A stretch of DNA of 64,000 nt from a virus (IMGVR_UViG_3300046370_000202); one strand, 5' to 3'; shown: positions 19,727 through 53,266, counted from the first letter of the stretch. Numbers and translations: made by a program. Notes: a model not told the origin generated them from the sequence alone.

Positions 19727-20191
19727 CTATTGACTAACGAATCCGGTACCGTCACACATGTAACAGTCTTCATCGCCATAGTCATCGTACCCATAACCTG
19801 AACACTCTTGACACGTCTCATCAAGATCTTCATCCGAATAGTCGAGCATGTCTTCGGTGTTCTCCATCGTCATCAACTGAGGGTTGAAGGTCACCATCTT
19901 GGTGGTCATCTCAACGATGCGGTCGATGGCAACATGGAAAAAGTCGTCCTCATACTTACCTTCATAGAGTCGACCCGTCGTGTAGGGTAGGACGTAATCG
20001 AATAACTCCTTGTCGATCGCACCCTTCTCACGTAGGAACTTCAGGGCACCGGAAGTGTTGTTACCCATCCCGTTGTTGTAGAAGTCATAACGCAGACGAC
20101 CGGCGGCACGAACCATCTCACCAGCGACAGTAGCGGCGTTACCTTCACGAGGAACCAACTCCTCCCAGATTCGTTCAAATGTAGCACTCAT
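19727..20191 (-). CDS. Hypothetical protein with C-terminal CxxCxGxG zinc finger
   Basis: LVPREGNAATVAGEMVRAAGRLRYDFYNNG; CQECSGYG...CYMCDGTG. Confidence 0.7.
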   Translation of the reverse strand: MSATFERIWEELVPREGNAATVAGEMVRAAGRLRYDFYNNGMGNNTSGALKFLREKGAIDKELFDYVLPYTTGRLYEGKYEDDFFHVAIDRIVEMTTKMVTFNPQLMTMENTEDMLDYSDEDLDETCQECSGYGYDDYGDEDCYMCDGTGFVSQ

Positions 20192-20295
20192 CGTGTTCTC
20201 CCTCTCAAAAGTGCATGTATCGCCTTCGCCTCTTTAGCCTTGATACGACGATCTTTGTTTATCTCTTTCTGTACCGCTTCCTTGTTGTACTTCAT
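20188..20295 (-). CDS. 35-aa basic peptide MKYNKEAVQKEINKDRRIKAKEAKAIHALLRGRTR
   Basis: TAAGGAG SD upstream; paralog of a module inside the 50381-51628 protein. Confidence 0.75.
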   Translation of the reverse strand: MKYNKEAVQKEINKDRRIKAKEAKAIHALLRGRTR

Positions 20296-20438
20296 AGACG
20301 ACTCCTTAGTAGACATAGGGTTCAACAGGATGACCGGCAGCGAGTTGCATCGCAGCGTAGACGAACATCCAAAGAGTTGCATTAGCGAAAAGAACTTCAA
20401 CAATTCGTTGGGGACTTGCGGGCTTCAATTTAATCATC

Positions 20439-20738
20439 TTAGATCACCTCCACACGGTTATCAAAATCACGACCAGCCATCTCAAAGGGGACATACATGA
20501 TGCGACCCACACGTTGTATGTCGTGTTCTACAGACCCAGTCACAGAGTCCTTGACGAAGATGGTGTAACCATCACACATATAGACCTTGCGAGGAGCAGT
20601 GTAGTGGGGTTTCGCCCAAATCGCACCTTTCTCAAGTACCTCACCTACGAGGTAAGAATCCGGACGATCAGACATCGGTTCAAAATCGTATGCACGAATA
20701 ATGTCTCCGACGTTCGCAGTGTTTTCAAATTTCATCAT
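20439..20738 (-). CDS. Hypothetical early protein
   Basis: VGDIIRAYDFEPM; GAGGAG SD; downstream of a promoter cassette. Confidence 0.65.
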   Translation of the reverse strand: MMKFENTANVGDIIRAYDFEPMSDRPDSYLVGEVLEKGAIWAKPHYTAPRKVYMCDGYTIFVKDSVTGSVEHDIQRVGRIMYVPFEMAGRDFDNRVEVI

Positions 20739-20763
20739 ATGTCTCTCCTCATTTGATGTAGCC

Positions 20764-20827
20764 ATTATATCAAATCTGGCGAAAGAGTCAACACTTTTTT
20801 AAAACTTTTTTGTGTGAATATTACACA
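20764..20827 (-). promoter_or_regulatory. Early promoter cassette (family A)
   Basis: TTGACT-16-TATAAT; shares cgccagatttg and aaaaaagttttaaaaaagtg with 17597-17660. Confidence 0.85.
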
Positions 20828-47352: not shown

Positions 47353-47532
47353 TTAGATTTTTTTTGGTAGGAGTCTGCGCAAAATCTTGACAGCGTCTTT
47401 GCGCTTATTTTTACGATCGTACTTTTTACGTATGATGACGGTAGAAGAATCGTCACCTGCGCCAGGCACACCACTGGTATTGTTGGTGATTTCTTCATCA
47501 AACTGTTTTATAAACTCTCGATACGTCTTCAT
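47353..47532 (-). CDS. 59-aa putative internal head protein (MKTYREFIKQFDEE...)
   Basis: Not in the ORF track; ATGA overlap with the upstream gene; N-terminus closely resembles the T4 IPIII capsid-targeting sequence MKTYQEFIAE. Confidence 0.7.
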   Translation of the reverse strand: MKTYREFIKQFDEEITNNTSGVPGAGDDSSTVIIRKKYDRKNKRKDAVKILRRLLPKKI

Positions 47533-48784: not shown

Positions 48785-49633
48785 TTACTTTCCTTTTACT
48801 GGATTGATGACTGACTTATCACCATTAGATAGATTGTCTGCACCACTTCGTGCAGGCGCTTGTTTCTTGACTGCCTTAGCAGCAGCAAAAGTTTTCTTAT
48901 GACTATCTTCTTCTTCGCCTTCAACTTTCTTATCAGACTTCTTGTGCATACCAATGACTTTCTTGTCATGTTCAGAAGAATGATCATCATATTTTTCAGG
49001 AGCAAGTGCGCCTTTCTTAGGATTTGCGGCTTCAGCAAATGCCGACCACATATCTGCAAACGATCCACGTAGGTCTAGACTCTCGATCTTGGAGATCTCT
49101 GATTTCTTATCAGCAGTCTTAGGGTTTTTCTTGACAGGATTCTCTTCGTCATCCTTTGCATCGATCGCGTCGTCCGTTGCGGCACGCTTCTTGTGTAGGT
49201 ATTCGTCAGAAGAATCTGTATCGCCATCATTATCGATGTCCTTGTCCTTACGATCTTTGAACTTCTTATCGTTCTCTTTATCGTCTACTGGATCAAGTTT
49301 CTTTTCAGACACTTCGTGATAACCTTTGTTATCGCAGTGATCACAACCTTTGCCTTCACACTTAGGACATTCTTTCTGTCCTTCTTTGTAAGTTTTTTTG
49401 CCACAGGCTTCGTCTAGTTCTGATTCGACTTCTTCTTTAACAGTTCCAGACACACGCAATGCTGCGATGAATGCCTTGGCTTGTGGACCTTTGATGCCCG
49501 CTTTAGACATTGCTTTATTAATAGCACCGCGATTCCACGGCCCCATGTTTACTGCTTCCTCTAGAGTTTCCTCTGCCTGAGGCTCGGAGACCATTCCCAA
49601 ATACGCCTCCATAATTTTAGTGATATCTGACAT
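48785..49633 (-). CDS. Modular charged protein, putative head-internal
   Basis: TLEE, ELDE and VSE linkers; CPKCEGKGCDHC finger; DIDNDGDTDSSDEYL EF-hand-like loop. Confidence 0.65.
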   Translation of the reverse strand: MSDITKIMEAYLGMVSEPQAEETLEEAVNMGPWNRGAINKAMSKAGIKGPQAKAFIAALRVSGTVKEEVESELDEACGKKTYKEGQKECPKCEGKGCDHCDNKGYHEVSEKKLDPVDDKENDKKFKDRKDKDIDNDGDTDSSDEYLHKKRAATDDAIDAKDDEENPVKKNPKTADKKSEISKIESLDLRGSFADMWSAFAEAANPKKGALAPEKYDDHSSEHDKKVIGMHKKSDKKVEGEEEDSHKKTFAAAKAVKKQAPARSGADNLSNGDKSVINPVKGK

Positions 49634-50066: not shown

Positions 50067-50384
50067 TTACCATGCGCGACACGACCAATATCGTGCCTTC
50101 CACTTCGGGCCAGGATCTGCACAATTGTGCCTAGCTCGAAAACTTTTACGACGAGCAGGGTTGTCTTTTTTAATCTCCATATTCGGATCACCGAATGAGA
50201 CCTTCACGACATTTCCCTTCTCGTTCTTTGTATACACGTAGAACTTCTTAGAGCCACCACGTACAGGTTTGTTCAATGTAACAGTCTTGCCCTGATACTC
50301 CGCCTCGCTGAGTTCTAACTCTTCGTCGAGAGACTTACACGCCTCACAACATCTTTCTTCTACATACTGTTTAAACTTTTTCAT
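50067..50384 (-). CDS. Putative internal head protein
   Basis: MKKFKQYVEE leader; KVSFGDPNM...RRKSFRARHNC...ARYWSCRAW. Confidence 0.75.
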   Translation of the reverse strand: MKKFKQYVEERCCEACKSLDEELELSEAEYQGKTVTLNKPVRGGSKKFYVYTKNEKGNVVKVSFGDPNMEIKKDNPARRKSFRARHNCADPGPKWKARYWSCRAW

Positions 50385-51628
50385 TTTGAAAGTAATGCCT
50401 TTGCCTTGGTGCGATCGTGGAAAGCGAATGTATAAGACTTACCGTCCTTTTCGTCTTTGACCACATAACCAGATTTGGTCATCTTAGTGATCTTACCCAT
50501 TCTCTTATCGCCATTCTTAGGTTCGTAGAAATCAACACCTCTTCCAACGTTGATTGAGTTCTTTGTCTCTGCGCCCATGCCTTTAGTTGCAAGAGTTCGG
50601 TAATTTTCATCAAGCGATTCTACTGATTCCTCTAACCCTTCACGCATGAGTTTACCACCTTTCACTCTGAATCCGTTATCTTTTAGGATTTTAGTAATAG
50701 TGGTCTTCTTTACCAAGTCGTCCATATCCTTGAGCAACTTAGTCAAACCCATGAATGCCTTATCCTGTACACTTAAAGAGGAATTCATAAACATAACACG
50801 TGCGAATGCAGCGGCCTTCTCGAACTCAATACCCTTTTTCTTATGTTTCAAGAGTTCATTAGATATCTTTTCAAAATCTGCGGCTTCGTCAAGTTCGATA
50901 TCTTCTTTTCTTGGGGTGCGACCTTTGAGTAGTGAATGAATGGCTTTCGACTCTTTGCCTTTGATACGACGATCTTTTTTGATCTCTTTATCGACAGCGC
51001 CTTTGTTGTACTTGGATTCACCAAGTTCGACTGACTCATTTGCTTGACGAAGTGCCGCTTGTACTGCCTTATGCTTAGACAGACCTTTCTTCATTTTCTC
51101 AATCTCGCGAACAGCACCTGTCATATTACCGCCCATTTTTTCGGCAGTTTTGACTGCTTTGATAAGTAGGTTTCGATCGGCGATCTTGTTGTGAATACCC
51201 ATATCAGAAAGTTTTGCTTCGTCAAGTTCGACTGACTCGCTCACGTCACTTGCATTGCCATACGAAGACTTTCCGATGACGGACCGCATGAAGTCATTCA
51301 GTTTGCCTTTTGGTCCACTGATACTGACATGGCCGCCCGATGTGGTTGCTTTCAGACCAAATCGTGTTGCGCCCGAAGAAACCTTGTCTGCCATAGTTGT
51401 CTTGATCTTTGCTGTTGCTTCATCAAGTTCAACTGACTCCTTTACAGGTTTGCCACCTTTAGAAATGATACCCTTGTATCCTTCTTTTTCCTTATCAGCA
51501 AGGAATTTCTTGGCGTACACTAATAGGTTAAAAGGCATCGTACGAATCGGCCCTTTCTTTGACATTGCGTACTTCACCACAAACTTATCTTTATTTGCGG
51601 ATTCTCTTAGTTCAAAAAAATCTTTCAC
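50381..51628 (-). CDS. Putative head-packaged polyprotein of six basic modules
   Basis: GTG start, MKDFFELRE leader; five ESVELDE-type linkers. Confidence 0.75.
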   Translation of the reverse strand: MKDFFELRESANKDKFVVKYAMSKKGPIRTMPFNLLVYAKKFLADKEKEGYKGIISKGGKPVKESVELDEATAKIKTTMADKVSSGATRFGLKATTSGGHVSISGPKGKLNDFMRSVIGKSSYGNASDVSESVELDEAKLSDMGIHNKIADRNLLIKAVKTAEKMGGNMTGAVREIEKMKKGLSKHKAVQAALRQANESVELGESKYNKGAVDKEIKKDRRIKGKESKAIHSLLKGRTPRKEDIELDEAADFEKISNELLKHKKKGIEFEKAAAFARVMFMNSSLSVQDKAFMGLTKLLKDMDDLVKKTTITKILKDNGFRVKGGKLMREGLEESVESLDENYRTLATKGMGAETKNSINVGRGVDFYEPKNGDKRMGKITKMTKSGYVVKDEKDGKSYTFAFHDRTKAKALLSK

Positions 51629-51633
51629 TTTAT

Positions 51634-51813
51634 TTAACTTCCTCTTGATGCGCCTCGAAATACCTTCGTTCCGGCAACTGGATTGACTGTTTTAACTTTA
51701 CTATTTATAGGATTAAAACTAGTACCGCCGTAGTTGTTGTCGGTTGCCTGTTGCAGTCTTTCTTTTTTTGCAGCAGACATTTTCTTGTTACGTGGTTTCT
51801 TCGATTTGCTCAT
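51634..51813 (-). CDS. 59-aa basic protein (MSKSKKPRNKKM...)
   Basis: ATGA overlap; AAGGA SD; below the ORF-track cutoff. Confidence 0.5.
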   Translation of the reverse strand: MSKSKKPRNKKMSAAKKERLQQATDNNYGGTSFNPINSKVKTVNPVAGTKVFRGASRGS

Positions 51814-52022
51814 ACGTTGTCCTTATTTAATTGTTCTACTGCATATCCCATCTTTTTTAATTCTGCCTTGGAGAAGGATGGTGGTGGTTTACTGAAAAAG
51901 TCAGCCGACTTCTTGATCCTGTCTAGTTTCTTTTGAGACCCAAGACCATGTTTCGACGCACGTGCGGAAAGACGGTCTTGTGCAGACCGCCTTGCTTCTC
52001 TTATTTCAGTAAACTTTTTCAT
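51810..52022 (-). CDS. Putative internal head protein (MKKFTEIRE...)
   Basis: Start refined; CTS-like leader followed by a basic body. Confidence 0.65.
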   Translation of the reverse strand: MKKFTEIREARRSAQDRLSARASKHGLGSQKKLDRIKKSADFFSKPPPSFSKAELKKMGYAVEQLNKDNV

Positions 52023-52024
52023 AA

Positions 52025-53266
52025 TTATCCTATAGAGACCGAATATCCGACCCAATCTGGACTTATGCTATCGAATGGGACCAGTTTAGTCGGCTGCGCA
52101 GATAGATCATTAGTATCATAAATATAAATAGAACCCGTGTAACCATCATCGCCTGGAGCGCCAACAATTAGTTTATCAAGGAGCGCATCAATTGACATTC
52201 CGAACAGGCCAGTGGGTAGGGTCAGTTTAGTCGGTTGTGTGGATAAATCATTGGCGTCATAAACATATACTGAACCAGAATCCTCTGGTCCGAAGTTTGG
52301 AGATCCGACAAAGATTTTATCGTCAATAGCAGCAACTGATTTTCCAAAGTTATCGCCCGCAGCTCCATCAAACGCTGTTAGTTTCGTTGGTGTCGCAGAA
52401 AGATCATTTGAGTCATAGACGTAAGCTGAACCAGAGTTAGATCCGTTGTCATCGTCATAATGTGCACCAACAATAATCTTATCGTCAGTAGCAACAACTG
52501 AGATTCCAAAGTTATCACCCTGCACTCCATCAAACGCTGTTAGTTTGGTAGGTGCAGCAGATAGATCATTGGCGTCATAGACGTAAGCTGAACCAGAGTT
52601 AGATCCGTTGTCATCGTCGTTAAGTGCACCAACGACGATCTTATCAGATGTCGCATCAACTGAGGTTCCAAAGGAATCAGACGTAGCACCATCAAACGCT
52701 GTTAGTTTAGTTGGTTGCGCTGTCAGATCGTTGGTGTCATAAACGTATACAGAACCTGAGTTTTCTGCGGCGTTGTCGTCATCACTTTCCGCGGCAACAA
52801 CTAACTTACCATTATTGGCAGAAAGTTGTTTGCCGAATCTATCACTTGCAGCACCATCGAATGCTGTTAACTTAGTTGGTTGAGCAGATAGATCGTTCGC
52901 GTCATAGACGTATACCGCACCAGAATCAGATCCATTGTCGTCATCATGTGGTGTGCCGACAAAGATTTTATCGGCCGTAGCACCAACTGAACTACCAAAC
53001 TGATCATTAAATCGTCCATTACCGCTTAAAATTAATTTTGTTGATTGATCAGATAAGTTGTTAATGTCATAGACGTAGACTGAACCAGAGTTTGTGAAAT
53101 CTATATCTGAATATGGTACTCCAACTACCAACCAGTTTGCAGATGGGGCTGGTTCCGGTGCTGGTTCTGGTGACGGAGAAGGAACTGCTGGAGGCGCGTC
53201 TGCGTCTACTCCAGTGACTACTGCACCCGCACTAAAGATTGATCCCGATGTAATTTTAGTTGCCAT
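52025..53266 (-). CDS. FG-GAP repeat beta-propeller virion protein
   Basis: About 7 repeats of FG.SV....DKI.VGA..DDDNGS.SGS.YVYD.NDLS..PTKL. Confidence 0.85.
   Translation of the reverse strand: MATKITSGSIFSAGAVVTGVDADAPPAVPSPSPEPAPEPAPSANWLVVGVPYSDIDFTNSGSVYVYDINNLSDQSTKLILSGNGRFNDQFGSSVGATADKIFVGTPHDDDNGSDSGAVYVYDANDLSAQPTKLTAFDGAASDRFGKQLSANNGKLVVAAESDDDNAAENSGSVYVYDTNDLTAQPTKLTAFDGATSDSFGTSVDATSDKIVVGALNDDDNGSNSGSAYVYDANDLSAAPTKLTAFDGVQGDNFGISVVATDDKIIVGAHYDDDNGSNSGSAYVYDSNDLSATPTKLTAFDGAAGDNFGKSVAAIDDKIFVGSPNFGPEDSGSVYVYDANDLSTQPTKLTLPTGLFGMSIDALLDKLIVGAPGDDGYTGSIYIYDTNDLSAQPTKLVPFDSISPDWVGYSVSIG

Follow-up and report, generated by a model that had tools for sequence, protein, structure and literature searches.

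Results

Two copies of a small domain in a marine T4-like phage

The window, by which we mean the whole stretch of 64,000 nucleotides that was analysed, corresponds to the minus strand of a virus record in IMG/VR (IMGVR_UViG_3300046370_000202; 160,050 bp, estimated completeness 93%). Its nearest relative in GenBank is phage C48C1 of the Kyanoviridae (82% nucleotide identity across 57% of a 24-kb query), followed at greater distance by OM43 phage Melnitz and pelagiphage HTVC008M, and we therefore assign it to the marine T4-like myoviruses. The genome encodes a gp21-family prohead protease (PF03420; genome record positions 126620-127060, 140 bits, E = 4.4e-42), after which come the scaffold and major capsid genes. 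The features discussed below, centred on a free-standing 35-aa gene and a 415-aa modular protein, are collected in Table 1. In the genome record, the cluster around the 415-aa ORF lies ~105 kb from the portal-protease-capsid block and adjoins genes of nucleotide metabolism.

Table 1. Features of the two loci (positions counted from the first letter of the window; a slash marks a proposed cut)
Feature	Position	Strand	Remarks
154-aa downstream gene	19727..20191	-	ATGA overlap: TGA of the 35-aa ORF with its ATG
35-aa free-standing gene, basic helix-loop-helix mini-domain	20188..20295	-	ORF, syntenic orthologs, codon pattern, AlphaFold2
TAAGGAG Shine-Dalgarno	20302..20308	-	6 nt before ATG; TAA is the stop of the 43-aa gene
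43-aa upstream operon gene	20306..20437	-	kept in relatives
Sigma-70-type promoter-like site, TTGACT-16-TATAAT + TG	20764..20791	-	heads the operon of the 35-aa ORF
282-aa modular protein	48785..49633	-	module AVNMGPWNRG... also inside relatives' polyproteins (L023)
105-aa gene, leader MKKFKQYVEE...ELELSE + domain	50067..50384	-	homologs
415-aa six-module protein, candidate packaged polyprotein	50381..51628	-	GTG start
Linker 4, EDIELDE	50881..50905	-	directly after module 4; 25-nt DNA repeat, family D1
Module 4 cassette, 44 aa	50885..51016	-	mini-domain + spacer PRK + linker EDIELDE
Linker 3, ESVELGE	51013..51037	-	directly before module 4; 25-nt DNA repeat, family D1
Linker 2, ESVELDE	51214..51238	-	25-nt DNA repeat, family D1
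Linker 1, ESVELDE	51415..51439	-	25-nt DNA repeat, family D1
Leader (M)KDFFELRE	51602..51628	-	resembles T4 capsid targeting sequence; ends L-x-E
TATAAATA, T4 late-promoter-type motif	51702..51709	-	74 nt upstream of the GTG of the 415-aa ORF
70-aa gene, leader MKKFTEIRE/A	51810..52022	-	N-terminal motif

An initial annotation of this DNA had reported that the 35-aa ORF matches the fourth module of the 415-aa ORF at 26 of 33 residues, with many synonymous codon differences, and that the match is bounded by the linkers. BLASTP returned the same alignment (26/33 identical, 29/33 positives, no gap; E = 8e-16), which covers residues 206-238 of the 415-aa ORF (window 50915-51013), begins one residue past ...ESVELGE and stops three residues (PRK) short of EDIELDE. 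At the DNA level 74 of 99 bases are identical, and the differences comprise 14.5 synonymous and 10.5 non-synonymous changes (pS = 0.69, pN = 0.135, pN/pS ~0.2; p = 1e-6, Fisher). These are the only two copies of the mini-domain found in a six-frame search of the whole 160 kb.

The relationship between the copies appears to be an old one. Module 4 is 97% identical to copies embedded in the polyproteins of other phages (P0008 and P0011), and it is closer to the free-standing copies of other phages (85% identity) than to the small gene of its own genome (79%). In a tree of the mini-domain the 35-aa ORF falls, weakly, in a sub-lineage other than that of module 4; this tree has 33 columns and is mostly unresolved, and only nearest-neighbour statements were drawn from it. 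Since the copies fall in different sub-lineages, a recent internal duplication was ruled out, and their sequences indicate that they are old paralogs which were separately acquired. Among the larger records, a complete 161.9-kb genome carries the embedded copy only, a 78-kb fragment the free-standing copy only, two records carry neither form and the genome of the window carries both. The free-standing and embedded forms are thus gained and lost independently, as would be expected if the function is accessory and either form can provide it.

The 35-aa ORF is a selected gene in a promoter-rich operon

Downstream of the promoter-like site at 20791-20764, the operon consists of a gene of ~100 aa (annotated as a 108-aa ORF), the 43-aa gene, the 35-aa ORF and the 154-aa gene, in this order. 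The initial annotation had placed the small ORF in an early-promoter operon behind a TAAGGAG Shine-Dalgarno sequence of its own, and both signals were located. In addition to the Shine-Dalgarno sequence (Table 1), three sigma-70 promoter-like sites with 11/12 matches (21931-21903, 21542-21514 and 20791-20764), all on the same strand as the ORF, occur within 1.7 kb upstream of it. Sites this close to consensus (>=11/12) number 40 in the genome as compared with 5 in shuffled sequences, and 32 of the 40 lie on the main coding strand. The placement of the small ORF in a promoter-rich, early-type operon is supported by these motifs, and the gene is probably expressed early.

The first ATG of the 108-aa ORF (20439-20765, minus strand) abuts the -10 hexamer of the 20791-20764 site. 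Because its homolog in C48C1 starts MIMLKFEN, the true start of this ORF is probably the methionine of MMKFEN, near 20741.

Syntenic orthologs of the small ORF, 35-42 aa long, were found in Tara and JGI marine contigs (P0005 and P0007 among them). In one ortholog group the upstream gene is a different one, yet ATGA-type overlaps are kept on both sides of the small ORF. Phage C48C1 is without exactly this gene: the stop of a 44-aa gene and its GGAG are immediately followed by the ATG of the 154-aa homolog, such that the same Shine-Dalgarno sequence serves the 154-aa gene directly. The ~105-nt ORF of the window therefore sits exactly between a Shine-Dalgarno sequence and an ATG that are contiguous in C48C1.

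Between close orthologs, synonymous changes number 4-8 and non-synonymous ones 0-2. In a set of 12 distinct copies of the mini-domain, the variable columns at codon positions 1, 2 and 3 number 16, 11 and 33 of 33, respectively, and pN/pS ranges from 0.06 to 0.47; in most pairs synonymous sites are saturated and pN is 0.1-0.25, within an overall range of 0.03-0.25. The purifying selection that the initial annotation had proposed is thus evident, and strong, on the mini-domain in both of its forms. As this codon pattern is particular to the frame of the small ORF, an overlapping signal on the opposite strand does not explain it. On the evidence of the codon-position pattern and synteny, we regard the 35-aa ORF as a genuine, selected gene.

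The neighbouring 154-aa gene had no match in the family search. Its C-terminus carries two CxxCxGxG motifs (CQECSGYG and CYMCDGTG) resembling DnaJ-type zinc fingers, and its first residues, MSATFERIWEE, are a loose fit to the leader motif described below. A functional tie between the two genes was considered and set aside as lacking general support, because C48C1 has the 154-aa gene but not the small ORF and two other contigs (L070 and L076) have the small ORF in another context.

A family of basic mini-domains in viral proteins

The mini-domain spans ~33 residues with a net charge of ~+7, and its consensus reads x-Y-N-K-x-A-V-x-K-E-I-x-K-D-x-R-I-K-G-K-E-A-K-x-I-H-x-L-L-K-G-R. An AlphaFold2 model built from 81 sequences (mean pLDDT 87) consists of two helices, residues 5-14 and 20-31, joined by a five-residue loop. 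A search of 1.84 billion representative proteins with a profile built from ten copies retrieved 400 clusters (at 50% identity) at E <= 1e-3, 123 of them at E <= 1e-10. The match was always full length, in carriers of 36 to 840 aa, either standalone or embedded, such that both kinds of homolog exist. Among the best 150 clusters, 15 were of at most 45 aa and 37 of 46-70 aa. Across very diverse phages 15-22 positions are invariant or nearly so, including Y3, A7, V8, E11, I12, K14, D15, R17, I18, E22, A23, I26, H27, L30 and G32.

Library searches gave no relative of this family. Neither Pfam nor PHROGs had anything for the 35-aa ORF, and at E <= 10 Pfam gave no match for the mini-domain, SAP, HeH and Rho_N included. 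A resemblance to helix-extension-helix DNA-binding motifs of the SAP/HeH type had been suspected from the residue pattern; the model is a helix-loop-helix, and none of the searches lent this resemblance support. Foldseek found no match to the model in the PDB, a wide VIA-align search reached at best a Z of 3.9, to unrelated generic helical hairpins, and a profile search of PDB sequences produced chance matches to levansucrase only. The sole match in the ESM Atlas (0.76) was to an unnamed cluster, and a tblastn search of GenBank phages with the peptide yielded just two weak matches, to Rhizobium phages (E = 0.02). The carriers are no better annotated: 68 of these proteins had almost no Pfam matches and hit only PHROGs of unknown function. 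By these searches the family is undescribed in Pfam, PHROG and the PDB. Because the domain is tiny and strongly basic, its most likely mode of action is to bind nucleic acid or an acidic protein of the host, rather than catalysis.

Free-standing mini-domains occur in at least two unrelated contexts, namely the early operon of T4-like phages and an element with a serine-recombinase-like gene. Two closely related contigs of this element (L076 2818-3093 and L070 2109-2222) differ in this respect: in one the mini-domain stands free (37 aa), and in the other it makes up the C-terminus of a ~74-91-aa protein, apparently through a recent fusion or a shift of the start codon. The surroundings of embedded copies also differ. 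One embedded carrier (P0051) adjoins genes for MuF, a portal-InPase fusion and an ADP-ribosyltransferase, surroundings typical of polyvalent proteins that are packaged (PMC5512222). In the Logan contig SRR29078153 (L079, 7226-15000), from a phage with an Sf6-type terminase, a 574-aa carrier directly precedes Phage_Mu_F, a portal-InPase fusion and a gene for an ADP-ribosyltransferase. In some carriers the domain has other flanks, for example [DE]V.PV before it, or is N-terminal, and a glutamate immediately before the domain is moderately enriched (29/66, as compared with 27% expected). These varied flanks, and the element with the recombinase, show that the mini-domain is not confined to protease-linked arrays.

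The 415-aa protein is an array of exchangeable modules

The sequence L-x-E marks the leader and each of the five junctions of the 415-aa protein, and cutting past each occurrence divides it into six modules (residues 1-70, 71-137, 138-204, 205-248, 249-341 and 342-415). The modules are mutually unrelated. All six are basic (pI 9.8-10.4 and a charge of +6 to +9, linkers excluded), and acidic linkers join them. No Pfam family matched the whole protein at E <= 0.01, and nothing matched in PHROGs; single modules gave at most chance-level matches in either library, even at E <= 10. An AlphaFold2 model of the protein, which is of low confidence and was built from a collinear alignment, showed no fixed arrangement of the modules relative to each other (pTM 0.25, overall pLDDT 58). 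In this model the leader and the stretches containing every linker fell below a pLDDT of 50, most modules scored moderately, and module 4, which the alignment did not cover, scored low.

Across 62 related IMG/VR loci the modules were found reshuffled. The order was 1-2-3-5-6 in L015 and L016, x-3-5-6 in L017, 1-5-6 in L033, 3-2-5-6 in L035, 6-5 in L042, 1-3 in L044 and 5-2-6-1 in L048, with the junctions falling at the linkers. Module 4 is missing from L015, L016 and L017, in which the junction between modules 3 and 5 is otherwise unchanged: L017 reads ...ESVELGE/AADFEK..., as compared with ...ESVELGE/SKYNK...PRKEDIELDE/AADFEK... in the window. Module 4 together with its own linker therefore represents a precise 44-aa insertion. 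In another relative (P0011), module 4 runs straight into module 6 (x-4-6). The 25-nt linker repeats in the DNA are a plausible substrate for this shuffling.

The modules are, by the evidence of these rearrangements, autonomous and mobile units with exact cassette boundaries, in agreement with the initial annotation, which had proposed that they are autonomous. That annotation had also taken the free-standing paralog to be the strongest internal support for a polyprotein; the shuffling of modules among relatives is the stronger argument.

Exchange extends to other genes of the cluster, as seen from the module of the 282-aa protein that also occurs in relatives' polyproteins (Table 1). The 282-aa protein shares the segment KKFxDRKDKDIDNDGDxDxSDxxLHKxR with a Melnitz protein (L002 2024-2779) that also contains a module-3-like segment, indicating that modules move from gene to gene within the cluster and from one phage genus to another. 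Adjoining the leader-tagged cluster is a 413-aa protein with six FG-GAP repeats (52025-53266, minus strand; PF14312, E = 2.5e-75).

Candidate signals for packaging, cleavage and late expression

In T4, IPII and IPIII start with MKTYQEFIAE/A and IPI with MKTFKEF... (T4 record AF158101). The T4 protease gp21 cleaves after L/I-x-E, and for packaging the N-terminal 10 residues of IPIII are enough (PMC9026906). The 415-aa ORF begins (M)KDFFELRE/S, and the 35-aa ORF has no such leader. Under a strict motif, searched in six frames across 160 kb, such leaders occur only in the cluster of the 415-aa ORF, where a DNA repeat (D4) is common to the leaders of the 415-aa and 70-aa genes. Under a looser motif they occur in nine genes between 47.5 and 62.7 kb; the major capsid protein, which keeps the FLTE/ maturation site of T4, matches this loose motif as well.

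Further N-termini resembling the capsid targeting sequence begin at 47532, 54907, 56241, 56609, 57862 and 62675 on the minus strand (MKTYREFIKQFDEE, MISFKNYLDE, (M)IKNFSQYLVEE, MLSFKQFVSE, MENFSNFITE and MKSFKTFLDE, respectively). The genes with such leaders include those of a cytidyltransferase-like 445-aa protein and of a 228-aa protein with a P-loop (GGPGSGKS), so that enzymes may be packaged too. Outside the window, directly upstream of the protease gene and in the position of T4 gp67/gp68, lies the gene of a 65-aa basic protein with a GTG start (genome record, contig C1, 126364-126561); it starts VKTFQELRE/A, which fits the looser motif and is nearly the leader of the 415-aa protein.

Among the relatives the linkers vary (ELDE, IEE, PIVE, PITE, FIDE, LLDE), with P3 mostly L or I and P1 always E. 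The domain of the neighbouring 105-aa protein (residues 30-105) is leaderless in pelagiphage and roseophage podoviruses, and carries a leader and an L-x-E site only in T4-like phages (C48C1 and HTVC008M). This domain, named 'HVA1 family protein' in some records, is also found free-standing in Flavobacterium phages and in spindle-shaped viruses of Nitrosopumilaceae.

The late-promoter-type motif upstream of the 415-aa ORF, TATAAATA, has 25 copies on the coding strand as compared with 4 on the other strand, and no near-consensus sigma-70 site was found upstream of this ORF. Packaging and cleavage of the 415-aa protein are a plausible, and we believe the best, reading of the leader, L-x-E, protease and late-motif signals combined.

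A model of dual supply and its alternatives

The 415-aa protein would, in our model, be made late in infection and brought into the prohead core by its leader. The gp21-type prohead protease would then cut it after each L-x-E into separate peptides, which would be injected along with the phage DNA. The free-standing gene would supply the same mini-domain from early transcripts, and the domain would thereby be on hand as soon as infection begins and be replenished later. We consider it somewhat probable that the array is packaged and cut in this manner, the mini-domain reaching the host both pre-made and via early transcripts. This dual supply has a parallel in T4 Alt, which is injected from the head, as opposed to its paralogs ModA and ModB, which are not (PMC5512222).

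A broader scheme may also be considered, which we put forward tentatively: a plug-in form of delivery in marine T4-like phages, in which a leader-tagged array would capture small early-acting proteins for release as injected mini-effectors. The conserved 25-nt linker repeats would allow capture by recombination, and the head protease would free a cocktail of mini-effectors. The 33-residue domain would count among these effectors, with anti-defence or host-takeover binding as one example of its role, and its dual supply would cover the time before phage transcription begins.

The 415-aa protein may instead be an ordinary multi-domain protein that is neither cut nor packaged, the 35-aa gene being its single-domain paralog; solo and fused forms are found side by side in many families. 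The distance of its cluster from the head genes is in keeping with this, as is the occurrence of the mini-domain in many architectures without obvious L-x-E flanks. L-x-E is also a short motif that any acidic linker would contain by chance; linkers of this kind with a terminal E could be mere flexible spacers, and the low pLDDT at the linkers fits both readings. Several observations nevertheless make this account rather unlikely in our judgement: the leader is common to the gene beside the protease and resembles the targeting sequence of IPII and IPIII, the junctions of relatives retain their P3 and P1 preferences despite varied linkers, and the 105-aa neighbour gained a leader and an L-x-E site only in T4-like phages. 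A different possibility is that the modules are packaged and cut but serve as basic filler with no effector role, neutralising or organising DNA or forming transient parts of the prohead core; in that case the free-standing copy, made early, would have an unrelated task or serve as a general coat for DNA. All six modules are indeed basic, and in T4 many molecules of internal proteins are embedded within the packaged DNA (PMC3012670), which counts for such a role. However, the (nearly) invariant positions of the mini-domain also include non-basic residues (Y3, V8, E11, I12, D15, I18, E22, H27, L30 and G32), arguing for a specific fold and partner rather than bulk charge, and presence or absence of the domain varies among close relatives, as with accessory genes; we hold the filler role to be improbable.

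It was also conceivable that the small ORF is an untranslated remnant, decaying after recombination with the polyprotein gene, as it has 35 codons only and is lacking from C48C1. Against this stand the saturation of synonymous sites at low pN, with all 33 third positions varying, the conservation of start, stop and coupling overlaps in different contexts, and dozens of independent solo clusters (36-70 aa). These patterns leave a remnant with almost no likelihood and, to judge from them, effectively refute it. We retain packaging and cleavage of the array, with dual supply of the mini-domain, as the preferred reading.

Discussion

The candidate array shares several properties with the internal proteins IPI, IPII and IPIII of T4. 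The leaders are alike in type (MKTYQEFIAE in T4; (M)KDFFELRE, MKKFTEIRE and MKKFKQYVEE in this phage); the genome encodes a gp21-family protease, and L/I-x-E precedes every proposed cut; and the predicted products are small, basic and highly variable, encoded at a hyperplastic locus. Outside the leader, the 415-aa protein has no sequence similarity to IPI-III. Whereas T4 makes one internal protein per gene and cuts it once past the leader, here a single leader precedes up to six or more unrelated modules, with candidate cut sites between them, and the modules are reshuffled between phages. In Alt and ModA/ModB, as in the logic proposed here, one family is both delivered pre-made from the head and expressed from the genome; those proteins are enzymes of >20 kDa with known targets, in contrast to a 33-residue, probably non-catalytic domain whose packaged form would be one bead of a polyprotein.

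A second likeness is to polyvalent proteins (Iyer et al. 2017, PMC5512222), which join two to fifteen unrelated domains per polypeptide, a range into which the 415-aa protein fits. They too are mosaic among relatives, contain domains that are also found solo and are predicted to be delivered with the DNA. None of their hallmark domains (MuF, zincin-like peptidase, ART, ParB, methylases) was found in the single modules by Pfam at E <= 10. The array differs from them in the small size of its modules (35-90 aa) and in the proposed release by the head protease at repeated L-x-E sites, rather than by an in-built peptidase. The 415-aa gene also lies ~105 kb away from the virion and packaging genes, unlike the carrier P0051, which is located among them. 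In the giant phages phiKZ and SPN3US, propeptides of ejection proteins are cleaved at S/A-x-E (PMC9026906, PMC5694885), such that there, as proposed here, the head protease cuts after glutamate at short motifs, with several sites per protein possible. The extra sites in phiKZ and SPN3US occur within long propeptides that are discarded, whereas here each piece is conserved and independently mobile.

We thus regard the array as a variant both of the internal proteins of T4 and of the polyvalent proteins, with a new family of mini-domains. This family, hitherto unannotated and comprising hundreds of clusters, is now defined within viral dark matter, and its free-standing paralog offers a clean experimental handle on the 33-residue domain. 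The 35-aa gene further illustrates that even very small ORFs, when located in early operons of phages, can be true genes under selection. Phages of this kind infect abundant marine bacteria, and their relatives include pelagiphage HTVC008M and OM43 phage Melnitz. If the array is packaged and cut, the idea of the T4 internal protein, in which each gene makes a single protein, would extend to a polyprotein that recombines and carries many mini-effectors.
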